Shown here: piece by piece, positions 20,737-45,828 of the stretch
How positions within the stretch are numbered: the first letter of the stretch is position 1
Layout: every line of letters begins with the position of its first letter
Assembly: GCA_964654995.1 (NCBI GenBank)
Contig: CAZZKF010000006.1
Span: 7,029 to 54,285 of the forward strand
Direction: 5' to 3'
Origin: an uncultured Alphaproteobacteria bacterium
Lineage (GTDB): Bacteria; Pseudomonadota; Alphaproteobacteria; CAZZKF01
Length of the DNA stretch: 47,257 bases
Program-made: the position numbers and the translations under genes
The notes under the pieces: generated by a model
Told to the model about the DNA's origin: nothing
The model's database searches: none
The model's input: the letters and a program-made list of their open reading frames with translations, nothing else

Positions 20737-20754
20737 GTTCAAGGAGATCGGACG

Positions 20755-27399: not shown

Positions 27400-27403
27400 A
27401 GCG

Positions 27404-29251
27404 GTGAACGAACTCACCACACCGCCGCCGTCGGCTGCACCCGGCACCCGTCCGCAGGTGCAGGCGCCGGCGTCGACTTCCGACAACCCGTCGCCGCAGC
27501 AGCAGTCGATGGAAGGCGGCGAACGGGCGCCGCCTGAGCAGACCGAGGCGCAAGCCCCGCGCGGTCACGATCCGGCGGTGGTGGTCTCGGCCAAGCTGAC
27601 GCAACTCGCTCCGGGGGCGGAGCTCACCGTCCAGGTGTCCGGCACCAATGCCGAGGGCCTGTTGCGCCTCACTTCCGAGCTCGGCACCCTGGTGACGGCA
27701 CCCGAGCCCGAGCTTGCCGCCGCCACCCGCCTGGTGTTGCGCATCGTCGCGGTCGACGCCACGGTCAAGGCGCTGGTTCTGGCGATCGACGGCGAGGCCC
27801 GGCAGCAGCCGCCAACAATCGAGCTGACGCTGACCCGCCTCGCCCGCGTATCGGTCCCTGCCGAGCCGGCATCACCACCCGCCCCGGCCCTGCCGGCCAA
27901 CCCGACGCCAACTGCGTCGACCTATGCGCCGGCGCCCGAGGCCGTTGCCCAGCTCCTCTCGCAATCCGCCCCGCTCCCGGCCATCGCCGGCCGCACGGCA
28001 CAGCCGGACGCACCGGCGCCGCCAGCCGTGGTCGCGCCAGGCACCCGGGTAACGGCGACCATCGTCGGTGAGCGATCAACCGCACCCGAGGCCGAACCGA
28101 CGACAGCCGCGTCAGCCCGCGCGTCCGCACCGCCGGCGCCGTTGCACGCCGGTACCGAGCTGGTGCTGTCCCTGCTCTCGCATCGCCCGGGGGGAGGCGA
28201 GGTATCGGCGGAGAGCGCCGGGCCGCGGTCCGCCATCGCCGCTCCGGCCGCCCCGGCCCAACTCGAAGGCCTGAAGATCGAAGCCGTGGTGACAGCGGAG
28301 GTCGGCCAACGGGCCGCCGAGGTGGCGCAGTCCCTGACCCGGGTCCGCGGCCGGATCGGTGATACGGCGGAGGCTACCAAGCCGGTGCTGCTGCAAACCG
28401 GCATCGGCGTCATCGAGGCGCAGATGCCGGCCTCGGTCGCGGTCGGCGACGTGCTGACCACGCAGGTGATCACGGCGATCCCGGCGGCGACTGGCGTCGC
28501 CGATGGCGCCCGGCCGCTGCCACCCGAGGATTTTCAGTTCCTGGCTGCGGCGAGCCAGGGCTGGCCGGCGCTTGACGAGGCGCTGGAGACCATCAACCAG
28601 ACCGCCCCCGGCATCGCCCGGACGCTTGGCCAGACGGTGATTCCCGGCGTGCGGGCGCCGCTGGGTCCGAGTCTGCTGTTCTTCCTTGTCGCCCTGCGGC
28701 TGGCGGCACCCCGGGAGTGGCTGGGACCGGAGGCAGCCGCGGCGCTCAACCGGGCCGGGCGGTCCGATCTTCTGCGCCGCCTCGGCGATGACATGGCCCG
28801 CCTGCTGAACCTCGCCAGCAATGGGCCCGCCAACCAGTGGCGCCCGATCGTGCTCCCCTTCCACGACGGTCAGGGGCTGGTGCCGCTGACCCTCTATGTC
28901 CACCGCCCCGACGATGACGAGGCGAGGAACCGGGACGATCCGGATACCGGCGGCGATGACGACCGCAAGCGGGGCAGCCTGCGATTCGTCCTCGATCTCG
29001 ATCTCTCGCGACTCGGCGCCCTGCAGCTCGACGGCCTGGTGGCGAACGAACGCTTCGATCTGATTCTGCGCAGCCGGCAGGGCCTTGACGAATCGCTGCG
29101 CCAGACGCTGACTCGAATCTTTCATGACAGCAACGCCAGCACCGGCCTTGCAGGCGACATCGTGTTCGAGACCGGCGCACCGTTTCCGGTGGCGCCGATT
29201 CACGATCTCGCCCCGGCCGCCGGCGCCCCGGGCCGTGACACCCGCATTTGA
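27404..29251 (+). CDS. Hypothetical Ala/Pro-rich protein with a FliK-like C-terminal domain
   Basis: 615 aa ORF starting 4 nt after flhG; C-terminal 'RFVLDLDLSRLGALQLDGLV...FDLILRS' resembles FliK C-terminal domains. Confidence 0.6.
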   Translation: MNELTTPPPSAAPGTRPQVQAPASTSDNPSPQQQSMEGGERAPPEQTEAQAPRGHDPAVVVSAKLTQLAPGAELTVQVSGTNAEGLLRLTSELGTLVTAPEPELAAATRLVLRIVAVDATVKALVLAIDGEARQQPPTIELTLTRLARVSVPAEPASPPAPALPANPTPTASTYAPAPEAVAQLLSQSAPLPAIAGRTAQPDAPAPPAVVAPGTRVTATIVGERSTAPEAEPTTAASARASAPPAPLHAGTELVLSLLSHRPGGGEVSAESAGPRSAIAAPAAPAQLEGLKIEAVVTAEVGQRAAEVAQSLTRVRGRIGDTAEATKPVLLQTGIGVIEAQMPASVAVGDVLTTQVITAIPAATGVADGARPLPPEDFQFLAAASQGWPALDEALETINQTAPGIARTLGQTVIPGVRAPLGPSLLFFLVALRLAAPREWLGPEAAAALNRAGRSDLLRRLGDDMARLLNLASNGPANQWRPIVLPFHDGQGLVPLTLYVHRPDDDEARNRDDPDTGGDDDRKRGSLRFVLDLDLSRLGALQLDGLVANERFDLILRSRQGLDESLRQTLTRIFHDSNASTGLAGDIVFETGAPFPVAPIHDLAPAAGAPGRDTRI

Positions 29252-29283
29252 ATTTGAAGGCCCGCACCTGAAGGAATGACGCC

Positions 29284-29709
29284 ATGGCACTGACAACCGA
29301 CGCCGACATCCTCGACCGGCGCAATGCGCTCGCGGTTCTCGACAACCCGAGCCCGGAGCTCGACTACGTGGTGACCTTGAACGCGGTGGCGATGCTGCAG
29401 GGTCTGCCCGATTCGGTGCGTCTGCGGATCCGTTACGTGCCCGACCAGCTGATTCTCGATCCCGGCTCGCTCGACCGCTACATCGAGGCGCTGCGAAACC
29501 AGAGCTGGTCATCGCTCGAGGAGACCGGAGCGGCGATTCTCACCGACCTCGGCAACGAGCTGGTGGCGCGGTGGACGGAAGTGATGCTGGAGACCCGGCG
29601 AACCGGCACCAATCAGGGGACGCTGGCCGAAAACCACCATGTCCTGCTGCTGACCGACCATCAGCCGGACTGGAACAATCCGACGCTGCTCGAGCGGCTG
29701 CCGCTGTGA
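29284..29709 (+). CDS. Hypothetical protein with a QueF-like (T-fold) sequence pattern and no cysteine
   Basis: 'NPSPELDYVV', 'GLPD', 'IRYVPDQLILDPGSLDRY', 'LEE..AILTDL..L.ARW.EV' follow the QueF motif order; AAGGA upstream. Confidence 0.6.
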   Translation: MALTTDADILDRRNALAVLDNPSPELDYVVTLNAVAMLQGLPDSVRLRIRYVPDQLILDPGSLDRYIEALRNQSWSSLEETGAAILTDLGNELVARWTEVMLETRRTGTNQGTLAENHHVLLLTDHQPDWNNPTLLERLPL

Positions 29710-29715
29710 CCGGCT

Positions 29716-30159
29716 TCAGCCTGCCGATCCGTCCAGCGCACCGCTGCGCCGGCGGCGATAGAGGTCGAGTCCCATCTCGTCGAGCACAGCCCGCTCCTGG
29801 CGGGCTTCCGCCCGGGCACGGCGCTGGCGCTCCCGGTCCTCGGCGATCTCGTATTTCTTGAGCTCGCGAAAAGCCTCGGCAACGTCGCGTTTGGCGGCAT
29901 CCAGCTCACTGTCGATCTCGGCAATCGAGCGCTGGATGGTCTCGCGCCGCTGGATGACGCCGGCGGCATAGGCCCCGTAGGTCATCGCCACGACCGTATC
30001 CTGGGCGGCCTCGCGCTGCTCGCGCCGCACTTCCTCTTCGAGTGCCTGGGCGCGGCTTTCGAATTCGGCCCGCAGGCCTTCGAGCTCCATGACCTTCTTG
30101 CGCCGCTCATCGAGCCGCCAGCGGTGAACGCGGATCAGGGTCTCGAGATCCTTTCTCAT
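29716..30159 (-). CDS. fliJ: Flagellar export protein FliJ
   Basis: Coiled-coil 147 aa protein, '[14 protein letters not shown]', 'AFRELKKYE', 'LDEM'; overlaps the fliI stop. Confidence 0.88.
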
Positions 30160-31523
30160 TCTTGGGCCGGCTCAGTCTGCCCGAGCGCACGGCCCTGGAC
30201 GCCGCCGCGCGGGCCTTCCTCGAGAATGCGCGCCAGCTCGGCATAGCCGCTGGCGAGATCGCAGCGGTCGTCGTGGCGCTGGGCGAGAAACCGTTCGAAG
30301 GCCGGATGATAGGCGATTGCCTCGTCGACTTCAGGATTGGAGCCCTGGCGATAGGCGCCGAGGCGGATCATTTCCTCCATGTCGGCATATGTGGTCATGA
30401 TCCGCCGCGCCGTCAGGACCAGATCGTTTTCCTCGTCCGTATTGCAGCGCGGCATCGTCCGCGAGATCGACCGCAAGACGTTGATCGCCGGATAGCGCCC
30501 GCGCTCGGCGATCGAGCGGTCGAGGACGATATGGCCGTCGAGAATGCCGCGTACCGCGTCGGCAATCGGCTCGTTGTGATCGTCGCCTTCGACCAGCACC
30601 GTGAACAGGCCGGTGATGCTCCCCGAACCGGTGCCGGGTCCGGCCCGCTCGAGGAGCTTCGGCAGCTCGGCGAACACCGTCGGCGTATAGCCCTTGGAGG
30701 CCGGCGGCTCGCCGCCCGAAAGACCGATTTCGCGCTGGGCCATGGCAAAGCGCGTCACGCTGTCCATCAGACACAGGACCTGCTGGTCGCGGTCGCGGAA
30801 ATATTCGGACACCGTCAATGTCAGATAGGCGGCCTGGCGGCGCATCAGGGCCGGCTCGTCGGAGGTGGCGACGATGACGACGCTGCGCGCCAGCCCGTCC
30901 TCGCCAAGATCGTCCTCGAGGAATTCCTGAACCTCGCGGCCGCGCTCGCCGACCAGGCCGATCACGGTCACATCCGAGGCCGTATAGCGGGCCAGCATCG
31001 AGAGCAGGATCGACTTGCCGACGCCGGAGCCGGAAAAAATGCCCATCCGCTGGCCCTTGCAGCAGGTGAGAAAGGTGTTGATCGCGCGCACGCCGAGATC
31101 GATCTTGCCGGCCACCCGCTGGCGCCGGTGCGAGACCGGCGGCTGGGCGCGCAAGGGATAGGGCGCATCGCCCTGCGCCAGGGGCCCCTTGCCGTCGATC
31201 GGCTCGCCCATGGCATTGATCACCCGACCGAGCCAGGCCGGCGACGGATAGACGACGGATTCCTCTTCGGCCAGAACCGCCCGACAGCCCATGCCGACGC
31301 CTTCGAGCGGGGAAAACGGCATGGCCAGCGCCCGGCCGCCACGAAAACCGACGATTTCACAGGGTACCGATTTGTCGCGGTGGGCCTCGATGCGGATTCG
31401 CGAGCCGATGGCCAGCCGGTTGCGCACCCCGGCAACCTCGACCAGAAGGCCCTGAACGCCGACAACCCGGCCGTAGTGCTGGACCTCGGGAATACGGGCA
31501 ATCATGTTGGTCAGACTGTGCAC
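30156..31523 (-). CDS. fliI: Flagellum-specific export ATPase
   Basis: Walker A 'GSGVGKS', 'GERGREV', '[16 protein letters not shown]', 'GILDGHIVL'; GTG start chosen from the AGGGG RBS. Confidence 0.95.
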
Positions 31524-31596
31524 CGGCACCGCCCCTGATGGCTGAGCGGGTGGGTCCCGCCGATCTTCGGTTTTGAACGATCTTGACGCCAACAGC

Positions 31597-31695
31597 TTAA
31601 GCTTCCGTAAAGCATGACGGCATCGCGACAAAGGCGACTGGCGGCGAGAAACCGCTCTGTGTTAAGACTTCGTTCATCATTAACCTTTATTAACC
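31597..31695. promoter_or_regulatory. Cluster of CtrA-like sites in the divergent fliI/ctrA promoter region
   Basis: TTAA-GCTTCCG-TAAA (31597-31611), TTAA-GACTTCG-TTCA (31662-31676), and tandem TTAACC half-sites with N6 spacing (31680-31695). Confidence 0.65.
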
Positions 31696-31743
31696 AGAGA
31701 TGGGTACAGTGTTCGCAGACCGACGCCGGGAGGAGTGAAAGCG

Positions 31744-32457
31744 ATGCGGGTTTTGTTGATTGAAGACGACGCCTCGACCGCCAGAAGCATCGAGCTGATG
31801 CTGTCGGCGGAAGGGTTCAACATTTACACCACGGACCTTGGTGAAGAAGGGTTGGACCTCGGCAAGCTGTATGATTACGACATCATCATTCTGGATCTCA
31901 ACCTGCCCGACATGCACGGCTATGACGTGCTCAAGAAACTGCGCCTGTCCAAGGTCGAGACGCCGATCCTCATCCTGTCCGGTCTGTCCGAGCCGGACGA
32001 CAAGGTCCGCGGGCTCGGTTTCGGGGCCGACGACTATCTGACCAAACCGTTCCACAAGGACGAGCTGGTCGCCCGCATCCACGCCATCGTGCGGCGCTCC
32101 AAGGGCCACGCCCAGTCGATCATCAAGACCGGGCGCCTTCAGGTCAATCTGGATACCAAGACGGTCGAGGTCGACGGTCAACGGGTGCATCTTACCGGCA
32201 AGGAATACGCCATGCTCGAGCTGCTGTCCTTGCGCAAGGGCACGACGCTGACCAAGGAGATGTTCCTCAACCACCTCTATGGCGGCATGGACGAGCCGGA
32301 ACAGAAGATCATCGACGTGTTCATCTGCAAGCTGCGCAAGAAGCTGCAGAACGCCACCGGCAACGAAAACTACATCGAAACAGTGTGGGGCCGCGGCTAC
32401 GTGCTGCGCGATCCGGTCGGCGAAGACGACGAGGTCGCCACCGCCGCCACCGGCTGA
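31744..32457 (+). CDS. ctrA: Cell cycle/motility response regulator CtrA
   Basis: 'MRVLLIEDD...SIELML', '[26 protein letters not shown]', '[33 protein letters not shown]', 'IETVWGRGY'; GGAGGAG RBS. Confidence 0.97.
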
Positions 32458-32585: not shown

Positions 32586-33395
32586 TCAGGCCGGCACATA
32601 CATGCCACGCTGACCGGAAACCGGCTTGAACTTGTCGGAGATCCCGAGCACGGTTTCGGCGGCACCGAGGAACAGCACGCCGTCTTCGGTCAAGACCTCG
32701 CGGATCCGGTCGAGCACGTTGGCCTTGGTCTTCTGGTCGAAGTAGATCAGCACGTTGCGGCAGTAGATGACGTCGAACATGCCCAGCGACTTGAAGTCAT
32801 AGAGAAGGTTGTGTTCCTTGAACCGCACCATCGCCCGGATGGCGCTGTCGATCTGCCACATCTCGCCGACCTGCGAGAAATATTTGACCAGCAAATGCAC
32901 CGGCAGGCCGCGCTGGACCTCGAACTGGGAATAAAGGCCGGCCTTGGCCTTTTCCAGAACTTCCCGGGACAGATCGGTGCCGAGAATATCGAACTTCCAG
33001 CCGGCGACCTTGGCCTCCTGCTCACGCAGGATCATCGCCAGACTGTAGGGTTCCTGGCCGGTGGACGCGGCGGCGCACCAGATGCGAATGCGCTGTGTGC
33101 TTGCGCGCGCTTCGAGGAGACGCGGCAAGACCTGCTCGCGAAACAGATCGAACGGCGTGTTGTCGCGAAAGAAGAAGGATTCGTTCGTGGTCATCGCTTC
33201 CGTCACGTCTTCCAGAAGCTGCTGATCACGACCGATCTTGATTTCCTTCACCAGTTCGTCGAGATCGCCGAATCCGCGCTTGCGCGCCAGCGGCGTCAGC
33301 CGGCTTTCGAGCAGGTAAAGCTTGTCGGCATTGAGCGCCAGGCCGGAGCGTTCCTTGAGAACCCCGCTGATGATTTCGAAATCCTCGGGCTTCAT
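32586..33395 (-). CDS. cheR: Chemotaxis methyltransferase
   Basis: 'TTNESFFFRD', 'IWCAAASTGQEPYS', 'FDVIYCRNVLIYF'. Confidence 0.96.
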   Translation of the reverse strand: MKPEDFEIISGVLKERSGLALNADKLYLLESRLTPLARKRGFGDLDELVKEIKIGRDQQLLEDVTEAMTTNESFFFRDNTPFDLFREQVLPRLLEARASTQRIRIWCAAASTGQEPYSLAMILREQEAKVAGWKFDILGTDLSREVLEKAKAGLYSQFEVQRGLPVHLLVKYFSQVGEMWQIDSAIRAMVRFKEHNLLYDFKSLGMFDVIYCRNVLIYFDQKTKANVLDRIREVLTEDGVLFLGAAETVLGISDKFKPVSGQRGMYVPA

Positions 33396-34567
33396 GCGGC
33401 TGCTCCTGTTGCCATACGGACGAGTTCGTCGCCCAGTTTGCCGATCGGCAGAACGGCACTGCACAGGCCGGCGGTGGCGACCGCACCCGGCATGCCCCAG
33501 ACGACGCTGCTGGCCTCGTCCTGGGCAATCAGGGTGCCGCCGGCCTTGACCAGAACCTCGCCGCCCTTGAGCCCGTCATGGCCCATGCCGGTCAGAACCG
33601 CCGCCAGCACGCGGGCGCCAAACACCTTGGCGACGCCGCGAAACAGCTGATCGACCGCCGGCCGGCAGAAGTTCTCGGGCGGGTCCTGATTGAGGCGGAT
33701 GACCGGCGTGGCGCCCTCAGACGCCACCGTCATGTGGTAATCGCCCGGCGCCACATAGACGCGGGCCGCCTGCAGCGGTTCGCCGTCCTTTGCCTCGGAA
33801 CAGGGAAGGCCGCTCAGCCGGGCGATATGCTCGGCAAGAATGGCGGTAAACGTCGCCGGCATGTGCTGGGTAACCAGGATCGGCACCGACACCTTGCCGC
33901 TCAATGCCGAGATGACCTTGAACAGGGCCTGAGGCCCGCCGGTGGATGAACCGATGGCAATCACCGACGGCTTCTGGCGTGATGGTGCCCGCAAGGTAAT
34001 CGGCGCATCGCCATAGAGTCCCGGCGACAGGGCTTCGGCCGGGCCGGCGGCGGGTCTGCCGCCCCGGGACGGCGTTTCCGCCCGTCCTCTCGCCTGCGGC
34101 GCCTGGCGGCGCCCGGCCGCACCCAGGACCAGAACCTTTTCGATCAGCGTCTTGCGGAAGATGTCGGCGGCGTCGGCCTCGCGGGTGCTTTCCGGCTTCG
34201 GCACATAATCGGCTGCGCCGGCGGCCAGCGCGCGGATGCTGATATCGGCGCCGCGCTTGGTCAGCGTCGAGGCCATGATGACCCGGACACCCGGCGCCTT
34301 TTCCAGCAGTTTCGGCAGGGCGGTCAGCCCGTCCATCTTCGGCATCTCGATGTCGAGGATGATGATTTCCGGCTTCGCCACGCTCACCAGATTGAGCGCC
34401 ATTTCCCCGTTATTCGCCGTGGCAACGATGTCGATCTGGGAGTCCGCCTCCAGCCAGCGGGTCAGAAGTCCGCGAATGACGGCCGAATCATCGACCACCA
34501 TCACGCGGTAGGGAGATGCCGCGTCCGGAGTGGAAGAAGGCGCTTTTTTTGACGATAAATCAGACAC
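33392..34567 (-). CDS. cheB: Chemotaxis response regulator methylesterase
   Basis: N-terminal REC (VVDDS, LDIEMPKMDG); catalytic 'GSSTGG', 'QHMP', 'LTGMGHDG'. Confidence 0.96.
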   Translation of the reverse strand: MSDLSSKKAPSSTPDAASPYRVMVVDDSAVIRGLLTRWLEADSQIDIVATANNGEMALNLVSVAKPEIIILDIEMPKMDGLTALPKLLEKAPGVRVIMASTLTKRGADISIRALAAGAADYVPKPESTREADAADIFRKTLIEKVLVLGAAGRRQAPQARGRAETPSRGGRPAAGPAEALSPGLYGDAPITLRAPSRQKPSVIAIGSSTGGPQALFKVISALSGKVSVPILVTQHMPATFTAILAEHIARLSGLPCSEAKDGEPLQAARVYVAPGDYHMTVASEGATPVIRLNQDPPENFCRPAVDQLFRGVAKVFGARVLAAVLTGMGHDGLKGGEVLVKAGGTLIAQDEASSVVWGMPGAVATAGLCSAVLPIGKLGDELVRMATGAAA

Positions 34568-34933
34568 CTACATTAATCCAACTTGGGCAAATTTGGCCTC
34601 GATGATGTCCCGGTCGAAGGGCTTCATGATGTATTCGTTGGCGCCGGCCTCGATCGCGATCCGGATGTGTTCGAGATCGTTTTCAGTGGTGCAGAACACC
34701 ACCACCGGCTTGTCCCCGTCCTTCATCCGGCGCAGGGCCTTCAAGAAATCGAGCCCGTCCATGACCGGCATGTTCCAGTCGAGAAGAATGGCATCAGGCA
34801 GATTCTCCTGGCAGCTTTCCAGCGCCTGCTGACCGTCCACGGCCTCGGCAATGTCGAAATTGAGTTCTTCGAGAATCCGGCGCGCCACCTTGCGGATGAC
34901 CCGTGAATCGTCGACGATAAGGCAGGACTTCAT
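34568..34933 (-). CDS. cheY: Chemotaxis response regulator
   Basis: Single REC domain 'LIVDDS', 'LLDWNMPVMDG', 'YIMKPF' within the che operon. Confidence 0.93.
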   Translation of the reverse strand: MKSCLIVDDSRVIRKVARRILEELNFDIAEAVDGQQALESCQENLPDAILLDWNMPVMDGLDFLKALRRMKDGDKPVVVFCTTENDLEHIRIAIEAGANEYIMKPFDRDIIEAKFAQVGLM

Positions 34934-34981: not shown

Positions 34982-35473
34982 TCAGGCTGTTGCACAGCCG
35001 CCAAAATCGAGCAGTTTGGTGACGTCGAGCGCCACCAGAAGCTCGTCGTCAAGACGATAGATTCCGGCGGAAACATCGCGCCAGCGGGGCTCGAGCGTCG
35101 TCGGATTCTGCTCGAAGGCATTGGCCGGAACACTCAGGACCTCGCCGACATTGTCGATCAGCAGGCTGTAGGGTTCGTCGTCATGCTCGACGACGACGCT
35201 CATGCCGGGCTCGTCGTCCGGCCGCGGCTCGAGACCGAGGCGCACCCGCAGGTCGATGGCGGTCACGATGCGGCCGCGCAGATTGAGCACGCCGGCCACC
35301 GCCGGCGGCGCCAGCGGAATCCGGGTCATCCGCTGGGGCCCGAGAATATCGTGGACGGCAAGCACCGGGATGCCCAGCATCTGGTCGGCGATCGACACCG
35401 TCACCAGTTCGGTGGCATCCTCCATCATCAGACGATCGACGTCGTGTTCTGAGTTCACCTGCATCTCGTTCAT
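34982..35473 (-). CDS. cheW: Chemotaxis scaffold protein
   Basis: 'GIPV..V', 'TRIPLAP..VAGVLNLRGRIVTAIDLR', 'LLIDNVGEV'. Confidence 0.95.
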   Translation of the reverse strand: MNEMQVNSEHDVDRLMMEDATELVTVSIADQMLGIPVLAVHDILGPQRMTRIPLAPPAVAGVLNLRGRIVTAIDLRVRLGLEPRPDDEPGMSVVVEHDDEPYSLLIDNVGEVLSVPANAFEQNPTTLEPRWRDVSAGIYRLDDELLVALDVTKLLDFGGCATA

Positions 35474-38400
35474 GCCGCTTCTCCCTTGACCGAGAGGGTT
35501 TGTGACAGGGCGTCGAGCAGGGTGTCCCGATCGAATTTGGCAACGTAATCGGTAAAGCCGGCCTCGCGGCCCTTTTCATAGGCGCTCTCGGTCGTCTGCG
35601 ACGACAGCGCAATGATCGGCGTCTCCTGCCATGGGCCGTCGCTCTTGACCGTTTCGGCGAACTGGAAGCCGTCCATGCCGGGCATTTCGACGTCGGAGAT
35701 GATGATGTCGTATTCCATCCCCATGTCGCGCAGCTCCAGCGCCTTGTCCGCGGCCTCGACGACGGTGACGTCATAGCCGGCAGCAACCAGGAGCGGCTTG
35801 ATCATGTTGCGGAAGAAGGGGCTGTCATCGACCAGCAGCACCCGCGGCTGGCGGTGCGTGCGCACGCTCGCGGTGTCGGCGCTCGGCGCCTTGAACCAGT
35901 CGGCGAACGCCTGCGAGAGATAGTGGCCGACGTCGACGATTTCGGTCGCTTCGCCGGCGATCACCGCGGTTCCCAGAACGCCCGGACTGTTGGAGACCAG
36001 TTCGACGTTGAACCTGTCTTCAACGATGTCGACAATCTGGTCGACCGCCAGTCCCATCGACCTCTGGCCGTCGGCAAACACCAGAATCGGCTGCCGGCCC
36101 TCGCTCTTGAAGGCGTAATCCTGGCGCAGCTTGACCAGCGGCATCAGGCTGCCGCGGTATTGCACCACCGGTCGGCCGTCGCTGGTTTCGATCTTGGCGA
36201 CATCGATCTCCTCGAGCCGCGCCACCAGCGACAGCGGCACCGCCTTCGGCGCATTATCGCCGGCCTTGAAGGTGAGCAGGGTTTCGCGGTCGTCGTGGAC
36301 GCTCGCCCCCATGTCCATGCTCTCCTCGACCTCGCCGCTGTGGTGCATGTTCTCGTCGGTCACCGCGGCGATACCGTTGGCGTCGAGGATCATGATGACG
36401 CTGCCATCGCCGAGAATGGTGTTGCCGGAATAGATCGGGATGTCGCGCAGGATCGGGGCGATCGGCTTGACGACGATCTCCTCGGTATCGAACACCCGGT
36501 CGACGACGATGCCGAAAATGAAGTTGCCGACCTGGCTGACAACGACGAAGGTTTCCGCCGACCGCCCGTCCTCGCCGTCGCCGTCCTGGCTCTCGAAGCC
36601 GAGAACATCGCGCAGAAAGATCAGCGGCAGCAGCCGGTTGCGCAGGCGCAGAACCGGCGTGTTGTTGATATGCTCGATTTTGTGCTCGCTCGACGCCGAG
36701 GCGCGCACCAGTTCGAGGACGTTGAGCTGGGGAATGGCGAACCGCTCGCCCGAGACCTCGACGATCAGCGCCGAGATGATCGCCAGGGTGAGTGGAATCT
36801 TGATGGTGAAGGTGGACCCCGCCCCCTCTTTCGACTTGACGTCGATGGTGCCGCCGATTTTCTCGATATTGCTGCGGACCACGTCCATGCCGACGCCGCG
36901 GCCCGAGACCGCCGTCACCTTTTCCGCCGTCGACAGGCCGGCGTGGAAGATGAACCGGTGGATCTGCTGATCGGTCATCGAGTCCAGCTCGGCCTGGGTG
37001 ACGAGCCCGTTGGCCAGCGCCTTTTCCTTGATCTTTTCGATGTTGAGACCGCGCCCGTCGTCGCTGATCTCGATCATGATGTGACCACCCTCCTGATAGG
37101 AATTGAGGATGATCTTGCCGGTCGCGGGCTTGCCGGCGGCAAGCCGTTCTTCGGGCGTCTCGATGCCGTGATCGCCGGAATTGCGGACCATGTGGGTGAG
37201 CGGGTCCTTGATCAGCTCGAGAACCTGGCGGTCGAGCTCGGTCTCGGCGCCGCGCATGTCGAGCTCGATCTTCTTGCCCAGTTCATGACACAGGTCGCGG
37301 ACGATGCGCGGCAGCTTGGCCCAGGCATTGCCGATCGGCTGCATGCGGGTCTTCATCACCGCTTCCTGGAGCTCGCTGGTGCAGTTGGAGAGCCGCTGCA
37401 GGGGCACGGTGAATTCGCTGTCCTCGAGATTGCGGACCATCTGGTCGAGCTGATTGCGGGTCAGCACCAGTTCGCTGACCATGGTCATCAGGTCCTCGAG
37501 CACGTCGACGCTAACCCGGATGGTCTGGTTCTTGAGGGTCGATTCGCCGGCCGCCTTCCTGGAGGGCTCGGGCGGCGCAGCTTTCTCGGCCTTGGCGGCC
37601 GGCTTCGACTCTGCCTGGGCGCAGGCTTCAACCAGCTTCCGGCCTTCCTCGGTCCGGCACAGCACGTCGTCCCTGACCGAGCCGGCGATGGCCATGATCT
37701 CGTCGATCAGATCGTCGGCGACCTCGAGTTCCTTGAGCGAATCATGCAGGTGGCCGGCGACCGCATCGAAATGGGCTTCGCCGAGACCGCGGGCGACCAG
37801 CGGCGCGTGCGCCGCCGCCAGCGAACGGCCGGAGTAATTGGCCGGGCCGCCGAACGCCATGGTCAGAAAGGCGCCCAGCATCTGGCGCTGGCCATCCATG
37901 TTGATGCCGTCGAAGAACGGCTTCAGGTCGGCATCCGCCAGCACCTTGTCGTAGAAGATCCTGATCGTCGCCTCGACCGCCGCATCGCCGCCAAGCCGCG
38001 CAAACAGGCTGCTGTCGCCGCCGTCACCGGCGGGCGCTGCATCGTCATCATCATCGGGGCCGGGCGCCGCCTGAAATGCCGCTTCCAGCTCGTCGAGGGT
38101 TGCTTCCTGAAGCGGCGAGACCGATGATTCCCCGGCCGCGGCCTCAGGTTCGGCTTCCGGTTCCGGGTCCGGCTCGGGCTCCGGGTCGGGCTCTGCGGCC
38201 GCCGCCTGGGCGCCGGTGATCACCGCGTTCAGCCGCCCGATGAGATCGCCGTCGTCGCCTTCGGGCTCGGCCTCATTGGCCTCCAACTCGGCCAGGATGG
38301 CCTTGATCTGATCGAGCGCCTCGAGGATCACGGTCACCGCTTCCGGCGTGACCTCGACCTCGCCGTCGCGGAATTTTCCGAGCACGTTCTCGGCGGCATG

Positions 38401-38586
38401 CGCCACCGCTTCGAGGCGCGGCAGGCCGAGGAAGCCGCAGGTGCCCTTGATCGTGTGAACCAGGCGGAAGATGTTGTCGAGCACCGGCTTGTCGGACGGG
38501 TCCTGTTCCAGCTTGACAACTTCGCTGTCCACAACCTCGATGCTTTCCGCGGTCTCGGTGAGAAATTCGTTCAGGAGATCGTCCAT
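35470..38586 (-). CDS. cheA: Hybrid chemotaxis histidine kinase CheA (1038 aa): Hpt - truncated haemoglobin - dimerisation - HATPase - CheW - CheW - REC
   Basis: Hpt 'IFRLVHTIKG' (His44); 'TIRVSVD.LE.LM..VSELV'; 'HMVRNSGDHGIE', 'DDGRG', 'SGRGVGMDVV'; two CheW-like domains; C-terminal REC 'LLVDDS..ISDVEMPGMDG..K'. Confidence 0.96.
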   Translation of the reverse strand: MDDLLNEFLTETAESIEVVDSEVVKLEQDPSDKPVLDNIFRLVHTIKGTCGFLGLPRLEAVAHAAENVLGKFRDGEVEVTPEAVTVILEALDQIKAILAELEANEAEPEGDDGDLIGRLNAVITGAQAAAAEPDPEPEPDPEPEAEPEAAAGESSVSPLQEATLDELEAAFQAAPGPDDDDDAAPAGDGGDSSLFARLGGDAAVEATIRIFYDKVLADADLKPFFDGINMDGQRQMLGAFLTMAFGGPANYSGRSLAAAHAPLVARGLGEAHFDAVAGHLHDSLKELEVADDLIDEIMAIAGSVRDDVLCRTEEGRKLVEACAQAESKPAAKAEKAAPPEPSRKAAGESTLKNQTIRVSVDVLEDLMTMVSELVLTRNQLDQMVRNLEDSEFTVPLQRLSNCTSELQEAVMKTRMQPIGNAWAKLPRIVRDLCHELGKKIELDMRGAETELDRQVLELIKDPLTHMVRNSGDHGIETPEERLAAGKPATGKIILNSYQEGGHIMIEISDDGRGLNIEKIKEKALANGLVTQAELDSMTDQQIHRFIFHAGLSTAEKVTAVSGRGVGMDVVRSNIEKIGGTIDVKSKEGAGSTFTIKIPLTLAIISALIVEVSGERFAIPQLNVLELVRASASSEHKIEHINNTPVLRLRNRLLPLIFLRDVLGFESQDGDGEDGRSAETFVVVSQVGNFIFGIVVDRVFDTEEIVVKPIAPILRDIPIYSGNTILGDGSVIMILDANGIAAVTDENMHHSGEVEESMDMGASVHDDRETLLTFKAGDNAPKAVPLSLVARLEEIDVAKIETSDGRPVVQYRGSLMPLVKLRQDYAFKSEGRQPILVFADGQRSMGLAVDQIVDIVEDRFNVELVSNSPGVLGTAVIAGEATEIVDVGHYLSQAFADWFKAPSADTASVRTHRQPRVLLVDDSPFFRNMIKPLLVAAGYDVTVVEAADKALELRDMGMEYDIIISDVEMPGMDGFQFAETVKSDGPWQETPIIALSSQTTESAYEKGREAGFTDYVAKFDRDTLLDALSQTLSVKGEAA
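37654..38010 (-). other. Group I truncated (2/2) haemoglobin domain inside CheA (about aa 193-311)
   Basis: SLFARLGG, FY (B9-B10), PFF (CD1), Q (E7), AFL..AFGGP..YSGRSL..AH (proximal His260), HFDAVAGHL..SL.EL.V, DDVL. Confidence 0.92.
38150..38194 (-). repeat. Degenerate 6-bp tandem repeat encoding an (E/D)P linker in CheA
   Basis: Encodes EPDPEPEPDPEPEAE between the Hpt and globin domains. Confidence 0.6.
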
Positions 38587-38686
38587 TGACCAGCCCTTTG
38601 AAATCGCTGCCGGGCCGAAAGTCCGCACGCACTCGTTGCACACGCACGGCTTGCCCCTTCCGTTGCAAGCACGATCACCGAAACAG

Positions 38687-38702
38687 GTTAAAAAGCTGTA
38701 AA
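38687..38702 (-). promoter_or_regulatory. CtrA-like box upstream of cheA
   Basis: Minus strand TTTA-CAGCTTT-TTAAC about 100 bp before the cheA ATG. Confidence 0.65.
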
Positions 38703-38735: not shown

Positions 38736-39374
38736 TCAGGCGGTCAGATCGGCCACGATGGTCACCCGGTCGTCGGCGGTCTGGGCAATCCCCAGGGTTG
38801 CGCCAAGGTCCTCGGCCAGATCGGCGGCCAGAATCGCCGGGCCGTGGCGCGGTGCCAGCTCCACCTCGCCGGCCCGCTTGGCGAGAATGCGGGCGACATC
38901 ATCATGCACCATGGCGCCGGTTCCCCGAGCCCCGATTTCAAGGCGCAGCCCCGCTCCGCGGGGCGCCAGATCGACCTCCAGCCGGCCGCCCCGGATCAAT
39001 GCCTCCTGGGCGAGAAGGATCAGATTGAGCAGCAGCTTGACCGCTTTCTTGTCAAGCTCGATGCGGCTCACCCGCCAGTCCAGCTCGATCTTGCCGTCGG
39101 CAAAATAATCTGCAACCACCGCGTGTGCCTCATCGAGCGTGATCGGCCGTGCCGCACCGCCCGAGGCGCCGAAGGCGAGGCGGTAAAAGCTGAGCCGCCG
39201 GCCGGCCTGGGCGGCGCTCATTTCCAGAAGCTTGAGCGCCTCGCGGCGCATCTCTTCATCGTCCTCGTCGGCGAGAAGCTCGACGCCGTTGGCCAGCGCC
39301 CCGATCGGGCTGACCAGATCGTGACACAGTTTCGAGCACAGGATCGCCGCCAGATCGGTTTCTGCCGCAACCAT
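38736..39374 (-). CDS. chpT: Histidine phosphotransferase of the CckA-ChpT-CtrA relay
   Basis: 'LAAILCSKLCHDLVSPIGALANGVELL', 'L.FYRLAFGASG', 'KLLLNL....EAL.RGG'; degenerate CA domain. Confidence 0.93.
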   Translation of the reverse strand: MVAAETDLAAILCSKLCHDLVSPIGALANGVELLADEDDEEMRREALKLLEMSAAQAGRRLSFYRLAFGASGGAARPITLDEAHAVVADYFADGKIELDWRVSRIELDKKAVKLLLNLILLAQEALIRGGRLEVDLAPRGAGLRLEIGARGTGAMVHDDVARILAKRAGEVELAPRHGPAILAADLAEDLGATLGIAQTADDRVTIVADLTA

Positions 39375-39495
39375 TCCTCTCACCCCTTTGTGGTGGCTCC
39401 AGGGCCGGTCTTCTTATAAATCATTTGTGAAAATCCCTCACTGCAAATTACGTTATAAGAACGACGGGAAGACAAACCGAAAAAGGCTTCGCGCG

Positions 39496-39706: not shown

Positions 39707-41440
39707 ATGTCTGAGATCAATGACGCCGATGCGCTAGACAGCAAGAAACGTCGTCCCGGCCGCGGCCGGCGGCGTGCCCGTCCCTTCGGCCGCGGCCGTC
39801 AGGTGGCACCGGACGCAGTGGCCGAAATCCGCGCCCTGATCGGGCCGGAGCCCCTGGCACGCGACATGCTGATCGAATATCTGCACCGCATTCAAGATAC
39901 ATACGGACACTTGTCGGCGGCCCATCTGGCGGCCCTGGCCGACGAGATGCGCCTTGCCCAGGCGGAGGTCTACGAGGTGGCGACCTTTTACGCCCATTTC
40001 GATGTCGTCAAGGAAGGCGAGGCCGCGCCGCCGCCGATCACCGTGCGGGTCTGCGACAGCCTCACCTGCGCGATGATGGGGGCGGAGGATTTGCTGGCCG
40101 AACTGGCGGCCAGAGCCGGCCGCGAATTCCGCGTCGTGCGCGCGCCGTGCATGGGCCGCTGCGACGCAGCCCCGGCGGTCGCCGTCGGACACCGCCATGT
40201 CGAGCACGCCGCGGCCGATCAGGTCCTTGCCGCCGTGCGCGAGCGCCAGGCAAGCCCGGAAATCCCCGATTACCTCGCCCTCGATGGCTATCGTGCGCAA
40301 GGCGGCTACGATCTGCTCGACGCCTGCCGCGCCGGTGCGCAGCCAATCGACGACATCATCGCCGCACTCGATCAGGCGGGCTTGCGCGGGCTCGGCGGCG
40401 CCGGCTTTCCGGCGGCGCGCAAATGGGCCTTCGTGCGGGCCGAGCCGGCGCCCCGCTATCTGGTCGTCAATGCCGACGAGGGCGAGCCCGGCACCTTCAA
40501 GGACCGCTTCTATCTCGAATCCGATCCCCACCGGGTGCTCGAAGGCGCGCTGATCGCCGCCTGGGCGATCGAGGCAGACGCCGTCTACATCTACCTGCGC
40601 GATGAATATCCGGCGATACGGCAAATTCTCGCTGACGAGATTGCCGGGCTCGAGGCCGCCGGCCTGACAGAGGCCGGCTATATCCGCCTGCGGCGCGGCG
40701 CCGGCGCCTATATCTGCGGCGAGGAGTCGGCGATGCTGGAAAGCATCGAGGGCAAGCGCGGCCTGCCGCGGCACAAGCCGCCGTTCCCGGCGCAGGTCGG
40801 CCTGTTCGGGCGCCCGACCCTGATCCACAATGTCGAGACGCTCTACTGGATCCGCGATATCGTCAGCCGCGGCGCCGACTGGTTCGCCGGCCAGGGACGC
40901 CACGGGCGCACCGGCCTGCGCAGCTTTTCGGTCTCGGGCCGGGTGCGCGCGCCCGGCGTCAAGCTGGCCCCGGCCGGCATCACCCTGCGCGAACTGATCG
41001 ACGAGTACTGCGGCGGCATGGCCGAGGGGCATGCGCTCAGGGCCTATCTGCCGGGCGGCGCCTCGGGCGGTATTCTGCCGGCCACGATGGCCGACCTGCC
41101 GCTCGATTTCGGCACCCTCGAGGAGCACGGCTGCTTCATCGGCTCGGCGGCGGTGATCGTGCTCTCGGACCAGGACAATCTGGCCGATGCCGTGCGCAAC
41201 CTGCTGCGCTTCTTCGAGGACGAAAGCTGTGGCCAGTGCACGCCGTGCCGGGTCGGAACCGAAAAAGCCGTCATGCTGATGATGAATGATTCCTGGGACC
41301 GCGAAGTACTTGAAGATCTGGTGACCGTGATGAGCGAAGCCTCGATCTGCGGCCTTGGTCAGGCCGCCGGCAATCCGATCCGCTCCCTGCTGACCTACTT
41401 TCCCGACGATCTGCCGGGAAAGAAACAGGTGACGTCATGA
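39707..41440 (+). CDS. NAD-dependent formate dehydrogenase diaphorase (beta) subunit, NuoE-NuoF fusion
   Basis: NuoE-like 'VATFY..F', 'VCDSLTC', 'CMGRC..AP'; NuoF-like 'GLRGLGGAGFP', 'NADEGEPGTFKD', 'GAYICGEE', 'ESCGQCTPCR'. Confidence 0.92.
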   Translation: MSEINDADALDSKKRRPGRGRRRARPFGRGRQVAPDAVAEIRALIGPEPLARDMLIEYLHRIQDTYGHLSAAHLAALADEMRLAQAEVYEVATFYAHFDVVKEGEAAPPPITVRVCDSLTCAMMGAEDLLAELAARAGREFRVVRAPCMGRCDAAPAVAVGHRHVEHAAADQVLAAVRERQASPEIPDYLALDGYRAQGGYDLLDACRAGAQPIDDIIAALDQAGLRGLGGAGFPAARKWAFVRAEPAPRYLVVNADEGEPGTFKDRFYLESDPHRVLEGALIAAWAIEADAVYIYLRDEYPAIRQILADEIAGLEAAGLTEAGYIRLRRGAGAYICGEESAMLESIEGKRGLPRHKPPFPAQVGLFGRPTLIHNVETLYWIRDIVSRGADWFAGQGRHGRTGLRSFSVSGRVRAPGVKLAPAGITLRELIDEYCGGMAEGHALRAYLPGGASGGILPATMADLPLDFGTLEEHGCFIGSAAVIVLSDQDNLADAVRNLLRFFEDESCGQCTPCRVGTEKAVMLMMNDSWDREVLEDLVTVMSEASICGLGQAAGNPIRSLLTYFPDDLPGKKQVTS

Positions 41441-44217
41441 GCGAAACCCTCACCTTCACGCTTGACGGCCAGGACGTCGAGGCGCGCGCCGACGAGACCA
41501 TCTGGCAGGTCGCCCGCCGGTTTGGCACCGAGATTCCGCACCTGTGCTATGCGCCGAAGCCCGGTTATCGGGCCGACGGGAATTGTCGCGCCTGCATGGT
41601 CGAGATCGAGGGCGAGCGGGTGCTCGCCGCATCCTGCATCCGCAGGCCGGCGCCCGGCATGGTCGTGCAAACCCAAAGCCCCCGGGCGCGAGACGCGCGG
41701 CGGCTGGTGATGGAGCTGCTGGTCGCCGACCAGCCGGCGGGGGCTGCCGCACATGATCCGGAGTCCCACCTGTGGCAATGGGCCCGGCGCATCGGTGTGA
41801 CCGCGAGCCGCCTTCCGGCCCGTGGGCGCCCGCCCGAGGACCGCAGCCATCCGGCCATGCGGGTCAATCTGGACGCCTGCATCCACTGCACCTTGTGTGT
41901 GCGCGCCTGCCGCGAGGTGCAGGTCAACGATGTCATCGGCATGGCCGGGCGCGGCGCCCATGCCCGCATCGTCTTCGATTTCGACGATCCGATGGGCGAG
42001 AGCACCTGCGTGGCCTGTGGCGAATGCGTGCAGGCGTGTCCCACCGGCGCGCTCTTGCCGGCCACGGTGGTCGAGCAGGCGGCCGCTGACGCAACCGTTG
42101 ACGGCGCGCGTTCGGTGGACAGCGTCTGTCCCTATTGCGGGGTCGGCTGCCAGATCACCTATCACGTGCAAGGCGACCGGCTGATCGAGGTCGAAGGGCG
42201 GCCCGGCCCGGCCAACGACGGCCGCTTGTGCGTCAAGGGCCGCTTCGGTTTCGACTATGTCAGCCATCCCGACCGCCTGCTCACGCCCCTGATCCGGCGC
42301 GAAGACGCACCCAAGACGGTGGATCCGGACATCGATCCGGCCAATCCGCTCAGCCATTTCCGGGAAGCGAGCTGGGAGGAGGCGCTCGATGCGGCCGCCG
42401 CCGGCCTGCGCCGCATTCTCGAGCGCCATGGCAGCCGCAGCCTCGCCGGCTTCGGCTCGGCCAAATGCTCGAACGAAGAGGCCTATCTGTTCCAGAAGCT
42501 GGTGCGCACCGGGTTCGGCAACAACAATGTCGATCACTGCACCCGGCTGTGCCATGCCTCGTCGGTGGCCGCGCTGCTCGAAGGCATCGGCTCGGGCGCC
42601 GTGACCGCGCCGTTCACCGATGCGCTTCACGCCGACGTTATCATCACCATCGGCTGCAACCCGGTCGAGAACCACCCGGTTGCCGCCACCTTCTTCAAGA
42701 ACGCCGCCAGGGCCGGCAAGACTCTGATCGTCATGGACCCGCGCGGGGTGGCGCTCAAGCGCCATGCCACCCACATGCTGCAGTTCAGACCGGGAGCGGA
42801 CGTGGCGCTCCTGAACGCCATGATGAACGTAATCGTCGAGGAAGGCCTCTATGACCGTCAGTACATCGAGAAGTATACGGAGGGTTTCGAGGCCTATGCC
42901 GAGCACCTGCGCCGCTTCCCGCCCGAGAAAATGGCGCAAGTTTGCGGCATCGAGCCCGAGACCATCCGCACCGTGGCCCGCACCTTCGCCACCGCCGACC
43001 GGGCGATCATCTTCTGGGGCATGGGGGTCTCGCAGCATGTTCACGGCACCGACAACGCCCGCTGTCTGATCGCGCTGGCGCTGATGTGCGGCCATGTCGG
43101 GCGCCCGGGCACCGGCCTGCATCCCCTGCGCGGCCAGAACAATGTGCAAGGGGCATCGGACGCCGGGCTCATCCCGATGGTCTATCCCGATTATCAGCCG
43201 GTGACCGATGACGATGTACGCCGGCGCTTCGAGGACGCCTGGGGCACGTCGCTGGACCCCGAGGCCGGGCTCACGGTGGTCGAAATCATGGATGCGGTGC
43301 ATGCCGGGGAGATCAGGGGCATGTACATCATGGGCGAGAACCCGGCGATGTCGGACCCCGATGCCCATCACGCCCGCGAGGCGCTCGCCCGGCTCGAGCA
43401 CCTGGTGGTTCAGGACCTGTTCCTGACCGAGACCGCGGTCTATGCCGACGTCGTGCTGCCGGCCTCGGCCTGGCCGGAAAAGGACGGCACGGTGACCAAT
43501 TCCAACCGCCAGGTGCAGATGGGCCGGCGCGCCCTTCCCTTGCCCGGGCAGGCGCGGCCCGACTGGTGGATCGTCCAGGAAATCGCCAGACGCCTGGGGC
43601 TCGACTGGAACTACGCCCATCCGCGCGATATCTACGCCGAAATGGCCGCCGTCATGCCCTCGCTCGACAACATCACCTGGGAGCGGCTTGAGCGCGAAAA
43701 CGCGGTCACCTACCCCTGTCCGGCCCCCGATCAGCCGGGCCAGGCGGTGGTCTTCGGCGATGGCTTCCCGACGCCCACCGGCAAGGCCCGGTTTGTCCCC
43801 GCCGACATCATCCCGCCCGACGAGCAGCCGGATGACGACTATCCGATGATCCTGACCACCGGGCGTCAGCTCGAACACTGGCACACCGGCGCCATGACCC
43901 GGCGGGCGGAAGTGCTCGATGCCCTCGAGCCGGCGGCGATCGCCACCCTGTGCCCGGCGGATCTGCGCGCCATCGGCGCCAAGCCCGGCGACGCGATCCG
44001 GGTGAGCACCCGGCGCGGCAGCATCGAGCTCACCGCGCGCATGGACAGCGGCGTGCCCCGGGGTGCCATTTTCATCCCCTTCTGTTACGCGGAAGCGGCG
44101 GCCAATATGCTGACCAATCCGGCGCTCGATCCGTTCGGGAAGATCCCCGAGTTCAAGTTCTGCGCCGCCCGCATCGAGAAGATCGAGGAGAGCCCGGCGC
44201 AGCGCCCCCAGGCTTAA
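41437..44217 (+). CDS. Formate dehydrogenase alpha subunit (Mo/W-bisPGD, Cys-ligated)
   Basis: 2Fe-2S 'IPHLC..GNCRACMV', two CxxCxxC ferredoxin motifs, 'CPYCGVGC', active site 'DHCTRLCHASS', 'LRGQNNVQGA', 'IPEFKFCA'. Confidence 0.95.
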   Translation: MSETLTFTLDGQDVEARADETIWQVARRFGTEIPHLCYAPKPGYRADGNCRACMVEIEGERVLAASCIRRPAPGMVVQTQSPRARDARRLVMELLVADQPAGAAAHDPESHLWQWARRIGVTASRLPARGRPPEDRSHPAMRVNLDACIHCTLCVRACREVQVNDVIGMAGRGAHARIVFDFDDPMGESTCVACGECVQACPTGALLPATVVEQAAADATVDGARSVDSVCPYCGVGCQITYHVQGDRLIEVEGRPGPANDGRLCVKGRFGFDYVSHPDRLLTPLIRREDAPKTVDPDIDPANPLSHFREASWEEALDAAAAGLRRILERHGSRSLAGFGSAKCSNEEAYLFQKLVRTGFGNNNVDHCTRLCHASSVAALLEGIGSGAVTAPFTDALHADVIITIGCNPVENHPVAATFFKNAARAGKTLIVMDPRGVALKRHATHMLQFRPGADVALLNAMMNVIVEEGLYDRQYIEKYTEGFEAYAEHLRRFPPEKMAQVCGIEPETIRTVARTFATADRAIIFWGMGVSQHVHGTDNARCLIALALMCGHVGRPGTGLHPLRGQNNVQGASDAGLIPMVYPDYQPVTDDDVRRRFEDAWGTSLDPEAGLTVVEIMDAVHAGEIRGMYIMGENPAMSDPDAHHAREALARLEHLVVQDLFLTETAVYADVVLPASAWPEKDGTVTNSNRQVQMGRRALPLPGQARPDWWIVQEIARRLGLDWNYAHPRDIYAEMAAVMPSLDNITWERLERENAVTYPCPAPDQPGQAVVFGDGFPTPTGKARFVPADIIPPDEQPDDDYPMILTTGRQLEHWHTGAMTRRAEVLDALEPAAIATLCPADLRAIGAKPGDAIRVSTRRGSIELTARMDSGVPRGAIFIPFCYAEAAANMLTNPALDPFGKIPEFKFCAARIEKIEESPAQRPQA

Positions 44218-44861
44218 GGCGCACGACCGCCCTGCGCCTGCAGCAGCCGCTCGGCGGCGGCCAGATCGCCGGCCCGGTTGGCGTTGAAGAAGGGGTCAAT
44301 GGGCTGATCCGGCCATTCGACGACATGCAGGCGATGGCGCGCCGTCCACACATCGATCCGGCGCAAGCCCTCGTCGACCAGGGCGCGGCGCAGATCATCG
44401 GCGAGCGCGACGGGCCACAGGGCGACCACCGGATGGGTGCGCCCGCCCGAGGCGGCGCAGGCGATGGCGGTCTCGTCCCCGGCCACCGCTTGCGCCAGCC
44501 GGACGACCAGATCGGCAGGCAGAAACGGCGCATCGGTCGGCACCGTGAGAATGCGGCAGGCATCCGGCACCTGCGCGCCCGCCCACATCATGCCGGTGAG
44601 CACGCCGGCGAGTGGCCCGGCAAAGCCTTCGATCACGTCCGATGCCACCGGCAAACCATAGCTGGCGAAGCGGTGCGGATCGCCGTTGGCGTTGAGCACC
44701 AGCCGATCGACCTGCGGTGCCACACGCGCGATCACGTGATCGAGGAGCGGCCGGCCGGCGAGTTCGCGCAGGCATTTGTCACCGCCGCCCATGCGCCGGG
44801 CCAGCCCGCCGGCCAGCAGCACGCCGACGATCGGGCCGCGCGCTGCCGGATCACTCGCCAA
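44214..44861 (-). CDS. mobA: Molybdenum cofactor guanylyltransferase; start approximate (TTG overlapping the fdhD stop)
   Basis: 'LLAGGLARRMGGGDK', 'GPLAG', 'VPTDAPF', 'HPVVALW', 'FFNAN'. Confidence 0.92.
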   Translation of the reverse strand: MASDPAARGPIVGVLLAGGLARRMGGGDKCLRELAGRPLLDHVIARVAPQVDRLVLNANGDPHRFASYGLPVASDVIEGFAGPLAGVLTGMMWAGAQVPDACRILTVPTDAPFLPADLVVRLAQAVAGDETAIACAASGGRTHPVVALWPVALADDLRRALVDEGLRRIDVWTARHRLHVVEWPDQPIDPFFNANRAGDLAAAERLLQAQGGRAP

Positions 44862-45723: not shown

Positions 45724-45828
45724 GCCCTCAATATGTGGCAAAGGCTTGGCGCTGCCAACCGGGACGGTGGACAGACCCGATCGCCGGCGCCATGATGCGG
45801 CGCGCAACCACAACAGAAGGCCCCCCCA

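Follow-up and report, generated by a model that had tools for sequence, protein, structure and literature searches.

In the textbook scheme, chemotaxis kinases get all of their sensory input through receptors. A cheA gene on a 47,257-nucleotide stretch of DNA from an uncultured alphaproteobacterium (GenBank assembly GCA_964654995.1, contig CAZZKF010000006.1, positions 7,029 to 54,285; this whole stretch is called the window here) raises the question whether a gas-binding domain may also sit on the kinase itself, as an original prediction, made from the DNA letters alone, had read a truncated haemoglobin (trHb) within the cheA frame. We were interested whether this globin is a genuine part of the kinase, whether it recurs elsewhere and what it might do there. 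A trHb in CheA is a natural and recurring design that has apparently not been described so far, and several readings of its function have to be weighed.

A group I truncated haemoglobin inside CheA

Six Pfam families were found in the window CheA at E <= 0.01 (Hpt, Bac_globin, H-kinase_dim, HATPase_c, CheW in two stretches and Response_reg), the same set that had been predicted, and the domain order is P1 - linker - trHb - linker - P3 - P4 - P5a - P5b - receiver (REC). By its domains the protein is a CheA, with P1 and its phospho-His, P3, P4 and P5 all above the Pfam cut-off; the NCBIfam CheA models match residues 338-756 of the 1057-aa open reading frame (ORF) and stay under their equivalog cut-off (447 vs 950 bits). 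His44 of P1 falls inside a block, HT.KGTCGFLG, that is invariant in the alignment of 15 homologues. Bac_globin (PF01152) matched with E 8.4e-17 over profile positions 1-117 of 121, and its score of 61.9 bits lies above the cut-off of 21. A PDB sequence search with the globin domain led to Chlamydomonas THB1 (7e-29) and Synechococcus GlbN (1e-26) as top matches and to further group I proteins (THB4, C. eugametos, Paramecium, Tetrahymena, and M. tuberculosis HbN at 5e-17), with group II proteins of the HbO type at about 1e-3 at best. The AlphaFold2 model of the domain, made from a 51-sequence alignment, has a pLDDT of 93.2 and a pTM of 0.85, and Foldseek superposed it on THB1 and the Paramecium, Tetrahymena and M. 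tuberculosis trHbN structures with an rmsd of 1.0-1.2 A. The TM scores to group I trHbs were 0.80-0.84 when normalised to the length of the query and 0.87-0.94 when normalised to that of the target; ranks 1-31 were all group I (rmsd 1.0-1.2 A for the ten best), and the first group II entry appeared at rank 34 with E about 5e-4. Pfam, PDB sequence matches, model and Foldseek therefore agree with the earlier assignment to group I (trHbN/GlbN), and residues 193-311 of the window CheA are an intact group I 2/2 truncated haemoglobin fold. No Pfam match to Protoglobin was obtained in the window CheA and, with its 2/2 fold and internal position, the domain does not belong to the HemAT-type globins (S family); PAS and MCPsignal gave no Pfam match in the protein either, which sets it apart from the Bac_globin-PAS-MCP chemoreceptors.

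Alignment to GlbN and THB1 identified the pocket and motif residues Gly199-200, Gly246-247, Phe211-Tyr212, Phe225, Gln233 and His260. In the helix nomenclature of trHbs, Phe211-Tyr212 are B9-B10, Phe225 is CD1, Gln233 E7 and His260 F8, and every hallmark named before, from the two Gly-Gly motifs to the proximal His, was recovered. In the clade of the window protein Met236 (E10) is followed by Leu237 (E11). Met236 aligns with a His of GlbN and a Lys of THB1, the distal iron ligands of these proteins; as Met replaces them, the resting haem of the CheA globin is probably five-coordinate and open to ligands, as judged from the alignment.

The globin segment lies in one uninterrupted minus-strand ORF (35470-38643), the longest version of which opens at GTG 38643 and comprises 1057 aa. 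Since all homologues and relatives open at MDDLL (15/15 aligned homologues and the orthologues of related genomes), the true start is ATG 38586, giving 1038 aa, and with this start the residue numbering used before (His44 in P1, Ser193 as the first globin residue, His260) holds. The peptide that had been read at 37654-38010 is indeed encoded there, by the minus strand; translation of the plus strand gives nothing meaningful. As quoted, the peptide stops at Leu309, and the coordinates extend two residues more, to Arg311.

That a chimeric assembly or a gene-call error fuses a free globin gene to cheA has a practically negligible probability, even though the genome (2.88 Mb, 93% complete) is fragmented into 164 contigs and the exact window protein is absent from a collection of 15 billion proteins. 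Besides the single reading frame, no sharp composition break was seen along the gene (guanine-cytosine content 0.67-0.71 across globin and linkers vs 0.60-0.66 in the remaining gene). A 2647-base contig of run X1, which may be the source sample, covers 37331-38700 and with it both globin junctions with 0 differences, and a contig of a second sample spans the junction of the globin with the second linker (37532-37764). A chimeric assembly is excluded by recurrence, as 15 independent protein clusters and four further GTDB genomes, near-complete ones included, have the architecture too.

Low-complexity, disordered linkers flank the globin on both sides, between P1 and P3. P2 is not universal among CheAs, and no P2 or CheY-binding family was among the six Pfam families of the window CheA. 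Globin-free CheA-REC orthologues have an Ala/Pro/Glu-rich P1-P3 linker of roughly 100-210 residues, in which a short motif, (GEV)SLDELEAAFxAAxGP or FPVAxELLxEVxAA, is often found in 1-3 copies. The motif lies upstream of the globin in the window CheA (residues 162-179) with 60-80% identity in seven of 15 aligned globin-CheAs, compared to 13-44% for the remaining linker, and was also detected in L008-L011, L015, L024, L025 and L029. It resembles the FliM N-terminus encoded in the same genome (LNQDEIDSLLGF) and may serve CheY or REC as a linear docking sequence in place of P2. Because the window CheA keeps the motif and the orthologues have linker and motif only, the globin is best described as an insertion into a P2-less tether; the earlier placement at the P2 site of enteric CheA is right as to the position between P1 and P3, but no P2 was replaced. 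Behind the globin, members of the window protein's clade have a Cys that is conserved and a short stretch predicted to be helical (VLCRTEEGRKLV; 37627-37659, minus strand, residues 310-320), with the Cys kept in the window protein, P0004, P0005 and L005.

Recurrence and conservation of the globin

At least 20 alphaproteobacterial CheAs carry the globin, so that the architecture is rare but recurrent, with haem-pocket residues conserved in most. A search for long proteins with the globin region gave 27 matches, namely 15 of the type Hpt-globin-CheA-REC (about 1000 aa), 11 globin-PAS-MCP proteins (MCP, methyl-accepting chemotaxis protein) and one eukaryotic multi-globin. The genome sample comprised 61 genomes, namely that of the window, a second member of its family, and a single representative for each of 59 further families in the class; an orthologous CheA (E <= 1e-30) was present in 33 of them and the globin insert in five of these 33 (G000, G001, G010, G026 and G037). 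When 185,579 species genomes were scanned with a three-sequence globin alignment, 452 relatives were confirmed, and the best 80 of the 452 included four in CheA, one in an MCP and 75 that are free-standing or in other contexts. Exact look-up named two carriers, Constrictibacter sp. MBR-5 with an intact pocket in WP_354080166.1 and Luteithermobacter gelatinilyticus with a degenerate one (in the cluster of P0028). In their source annotation carriers are called 'CheW' or 'CheA', and the globin is not flagged. The strongest library matches to the globin (P0030-P0036 and others) were giant proteins in which as many as 13 group I globins follow one another in tandem, P0030 having 1882 aa.

Phe-Tyr, Phe CD1 and His F8 are kept in 19 of 23 CheA-embedded globins, and Tyr B10 is lost in one. 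In P0028 and P0029 the proximal His is changed to Phe, and their globins are only 22-27% identical to that of the window, compared to 56-84% for the other domains; further degenerate globins are L007:3649-3996 and L028:1996-2364. The 13 aligned globin-CheAs with an intact pocket share 50-63% identity with the window globin, P5b and REC are 52-69% identical to those of the window protein, and the flanking linkers are 7-44% identical. By these identities the CheA globin is under selection, with the linkers far less conserved.

The globin tree (101 rows, 123 columns, quick method) was poorly resolved and had CheA and MCP copies intermixed, with nine changes of the CheA label on the best tree and one forced by well-supported branches. 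The tree of the kinase backbone (42 rows, 902 columns), for which globin columns were dropped and the partial proteins L027, L029 and L030 omitted, gave five changes for the insert, at least two of them forced by well-supported branches. A single gain with losses and several gains are indistinguishable on this tree.

The 11 globin-PAS-MCP proteins qualify the earlier contrast, according to which the known globin aerotaxis sensors are of the 3/3 type: 2/2 globins on chemoreceptors exist and were described in silico in 2018 (PMC6194562). Their globin is N-terminal, in P0017 C-terminal, and all pocket residues were kept in 14/14 MCP-fused globins examined. The alphaproteobacterial copies belong to the same subfamily as the CheA globins (about 57-60% identity), and the same globin subfamily is thus tethered at three places on array proteins (MCP N-terminus, MCP C-terminus, CheA linker). 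The PAS-MCP body of these receptors shares 52-54% full-length identity with a soluble 538-aa MCP of the window's genome (contig C26, L117:1380-2996, minus strand), which has two PAS domains and no globin. Both PAS domains match the Aer2 haem-PAS structures of Vibrio and Pseudomonas with E about 1e-11, including the segment DIFHK(D/N)P, which presumably holds the haem-binding His. Such an Aer2-like PAS-MCP was detected in three of the five globin-CheA genomes (G000, G010 and G026; not G001 and G037) vs 8/28 of the other genomes with a CheA orthologue, both being small sets of related genomes.

Chemotaxis genes of the host

Flagellar chemotaxis in the host runs through the window CheA. A single H-kinase_dim match, and hence only one CheA, was found in the 93%-complete genome, and the gene order is HPTransfase - cheA - cheW - cheY - cheB - cheR with fliI adjoining (Table 1). 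There are three MCP genes, for the soluble Aer2-like protein, a 4HB-HAMP and a HAMP receptor. With the window on contig C6 and all MCPsignal matches on contigs C1, C26 and C52, the statement that the che cluster holds no chemoreceptor gene was correct. Two globins are encoded, the CheA-embedded one and a free group I trHbN of about 124 aa with Lys at E10 (contig C12, L002 about 1492-1870, minus strand), the gene of which is convergent with an adjoining PAS histidine kinase gene.

The ChpT-like gene directly upstream has a homologue beside cheA in 20 of 32 loci of relatives, for which short flanks were available. Because it adjoins cheA and the kinase is a REC hybrid, this gene arrangement points to a phosphorelay that branches from the chemotaxis kinase. 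flhF and flhG-like genes are associated with a polar flagellum, and their presence in the window suggests one here. Divergent from the che operon, 39707-46908 holds genes for a NuoF-like/2Fe-2S subunit, a molybdopterin subunit of the formate dehydrogenase type and an FdhD-family protein, which look like a soluble NAD-linked formate dehydrogenase cluster. For the two CheW stretches of CheA, Pfam gives coordinates of the best one only, and the limits of P5b were estimated from the alignment.

Table 1. Features of the globin-CheA gene and its surroundings, in window positions.
Feature	Position	Strand	Basis or remark
cheA	35470..38586	minus	1038-aa hybrid kinase; ORF and translation, Pfam domains
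P1 / Hpt, phospho-accepting His44 (codon 38455-38457)	38299..38580	minus	Pfam Hpt, E 1.6e-17
Conserved linker motif ATLDELEAAFQAAPGPDD, residues 162-179	38050..38103	minus	Alignment of globin-CheAs and globin-free orthologues
Group I (N-type) truncated haemoglobin, residues 193-311	37654..38010	minus	Pfam, PDB sequence matches, AlphaFold2, Foldseek
Ala/Lys/Pro/Glu-rich linker between globin and P3, residues 312-354	37525..37653	minus	7-38% identity among globin-CheAs
P3 dimerisation domain (H-kinase_dim)	37348..37530	minus	Pfam, E 4.6e-15
P4 catalytic ATP-binding domain (HATPase_c)	36787..37206	minus	Pfam, E 2.6e-16
P5a, first CheW-like domain	36367..36771	minus	Pfam CheW, best stretch
P5b, second CheW-like domain	35902..36294 (approximate)	minus	Homologue alignment
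C-terminal receiver (REC)	35506..35841	minus	Pfam Response_reg, E 4.7e-20
ChpT-like histidine phosphotransferase (HPTransfase, PF10090)	38736..39383	minus	Pfam, E 1.3e-28; directly upstream of cheA
cheW	34982..35473	minus	Pfam CheW, E 1.9e-32
cheY (121 aa, one REC domain)	34568..34933	minus	Pfam Response_reg, E 6.3e-30
cheB (REC and methylesterase)	33392..34567	minus	Pfam
cheR methyltransferase	32586..33464	minus	Pfam
194-aa ORF between cheR and fliI, maybe no real gene	31690-32274	minus	No Pfam match at E <= 0.01
fliI	30156-31631	minus	Flagellar gene block 17254-31631
fliF	17254-18945	plus	Flagellar gene block
flhA	23466-25577	plus	Flagellar gene block
flhF	25595-26611	plus	Flagellar gene block
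MinD/FlhG-like ATPase	26608-27399	plus	Flagellar gene block

Possible roles of the tethered globin and known systems

The reading that we prefer, with slightly less than even credence, is that the globin serves the signalling array as a tethered, haem-based gas or redox module and modulates the delivery of P1 there. In such a module His260 would hold haem b, and Tyr212 and Gln233 would stabilise a bound diatomic ligand, O2 or possibly NO or CO. Depending on ligand or oxidation state, the globin would then sit differently on the P1 tether, or dock differently from it, which would alter how His44 reaches the active site of P4 and in turn the phosphotransfer to CheY, CheB and the C-terminal REC, so that O2 or NO would come to influence the tumbling bias through the kinase itself. 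The module would act within receptor arrays, beside the Aer2-like haem-PAS receptor and not instead of receptors. Receptor-independent input, as suggested originally, was therefore overstated, as the kinase keeps two P5 domains, the operon has CheW, CheY, CheB and CheR, and the genome encodes three MCPs, one of them Aer2-like. Haem binding, ligand binding and an effect on kinase output are predicted from sequence, and gas-dependent P1 delivery is supported by the intact and conserved pocket, the recurrence, the presence of the same globin on Aer2-like receptors and its location in the sole CheA, within a che operon.

Several points weigh against it. The linkers are of low complexity on both sides, and no rigid helix couples the globin to the kinase as in HemAT-type sensors, in which the link between globin and MCP is helical; disordered linkers and an interchangeable tether position argue against rigid allostery, and any control of P1 would have to work by docking or tether dynamics. 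Group I trHbs with Tyr B10 and Gln E7 release O2 very slowly and are poorly suited as fast sensors, and the genome already encodes an Aer2-like receptor and a free trHbN. His F8 is lost in three of the 23 CheA-embedded globins with the domain retained, and in the kinase tree the His-less P0028 and P0029 make up a clade that is sister to that of the window (SH-aLRT 99). No column separates fused (n=29) from free (n=53) globins at >= 0.8 vs <= 0.35, in a comparison that is biased against differences by the choice of free globins by similarity. As the same globin occurs at the N-terminus, at the C-terminus and inside array proteins, a proximity role in NO or O2 chemistry fits as well as sensing. 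A prediction of the complex of P1, P3-P4, globin and haem (score 0.00, mark 0.32) gave no answer either way.

Such a proximity role would make the globin a conditioning enzyme or buffer at the array, that is a NO dioxygenase, or an O2 store or scavenger, which protects or tunes the Aer2-like receptor and the kinase without switching CheA. We regard this as rather unlikely, although the tether site is interchangeable with flexible linkers in every case, the fused globins are like free trHbN at every column under the threshold given above, and the partner receptors are haem-PAS gas sensors; NO dioxygenase activity is documented for M. tuberculosis HbN, as far as the excerpt of PMC3493545 goes. 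With a free trHbN in the genome, however, tethering would need a specific reason, no partner reductase came to light, though no search was aimed at one, stoichiometric amounts at the array would probably provide little catalytic capacity, and the globin associates specifically with signalling proteins. That the haem is irrelevant and the domain is a spacer or a docking platform for CheY, CheB or REC in the P1-P3 tether, a P2 surrogate, appears improbable. The globin does occupy the P2 position in a protein without a P2 or CheY-binding Pfam family, and the four degenerate copies (the three without His F8 and one more without Tyr B10, the Luteithermobacter gelatinilyticus version included) keep a domain of folded length. 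Against this stand the pocket residues kept in 19/23 CheA copies and in every MCP-fused copy, and the low identity of the ligand-less globins resembles decay or re-purposing, not an ancestral state. Moreover, the orthologues function with a bare linker and the short motif, which the window CheA retains.

A broader form of the tethered gas module is put forward tentatively and looks doubtful to us as it stands: the group I trHb may be a portable, array-tethered gas module in the chemotaxis of Alphaproteobacteria, placed on Aer2-like receptors or on the P1 tether of CheA, that gives O2/NO or haem-redox input at the kinase. If this is true, the input would enter downstream of receptors, by-pass methylation-based adaptation and set the gain or bias of the whole array. 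A haem gas-binding domain in the substrate tether of CheA would mean direct input at the level of the kinase, and the trHb-containing CheAs would be a natural experiment on the control of CheA through its P1 tether. The idea is open to laboratory tests, as at least one carrier, Constrictibacter sp. MBR-5, is a named strain.

Among known systems, the free group I trHbs (THB1, GlbN, HbN) are closest to the domain itself, with 44-46% identity to THB1/GlbN, the same fold, the Gly-Gly motifs, Tyr B10, Gln E7 and His F8, but they are single-domain proteins, and E10 is His (GlbN) or Lys (THB1) compared to Met, followed by Leu at E11, in the window's clade. In HemAT and other globin-coupled sensors a haem globin likewise feeds chemotaxis, which is the function expected here, but in the portions of the sources at hand HemAT is an N-terminal 3/3 sensor globin (Protoglobin) on an MCP signalling domain and not a 2/2 group I globin inside CheA. 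Aer2 of Pseudomonas aeruginosa and Vibrio cholerae provides haem-based O2/NO/CO input to the Che pathway and has a homologous tandem-PAS MCP in the window's genome; there, however, a PAS fold on the receptor is used, and in the window CheA a globin on the kinase. In the haem-regulated kinases FixL and DosS/DosT, a haem domain and a histidine kinase likewise share one polypeptide. Their haem domains are PAS or GAF domains N-terminal to the DHp/CA core, and no globin in a CheA-class kinase is found there.

For the CheA lineage, Azospirillum brasilense offers a comparison, and its che1 operon presumably matches cheA-cheW-cheY-cheB-cheR as a whole. In the available part of PMC6759762, cheA1 and cheW1 both lie in the che1 operon, and CheA1 has two P5 domains as in the window protein. 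CheA1 thus shows that a kinase of this lineage can carry a fused accessory domain. The accessory part is an N-terminal transmembrane TMX module there and not a haem domain in a linker (PMC6759762, same part).

No description of a globin in CheA was found in full-text searches of the literature, as had been supposed for characterised proteins, and an earlier listing in a survey table of multidomain trHbs is possible. Term searches found neither 'truncated' nor 'trHb' in a 2026 aerotaxis review (PMC13401364) and no mention of CheA in a photoglobin survey (PMC8717448). According to passages of a 2020 globin review (PMC7475203), chimeric globins of type T1 are eukaryotic, and those of bacteria belong to T2 and T3. 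Among the closest known architectures are the soluble Bac_globin-PAS-MCPsignal chemoreceptors, e.g. Cc_4972 of Corallococcus coralloides, which were described in silico (Sharma et al. 2018, PMC6194562); the part of that paper at hand describes no globin in CheA. These receptors have the Pfam globin family, the presumed haem chemistry and the signalling pathway in common with the window CheA, but their globin is at the receptor end beside an Aer2-like PAS domain, and here it is within the kinase between P1 and P3. That the globin is fused to Aer2-like receptors as well as to CheA points to a broader, as yet unstudied group of aerotaxis components with 2/2 globins.

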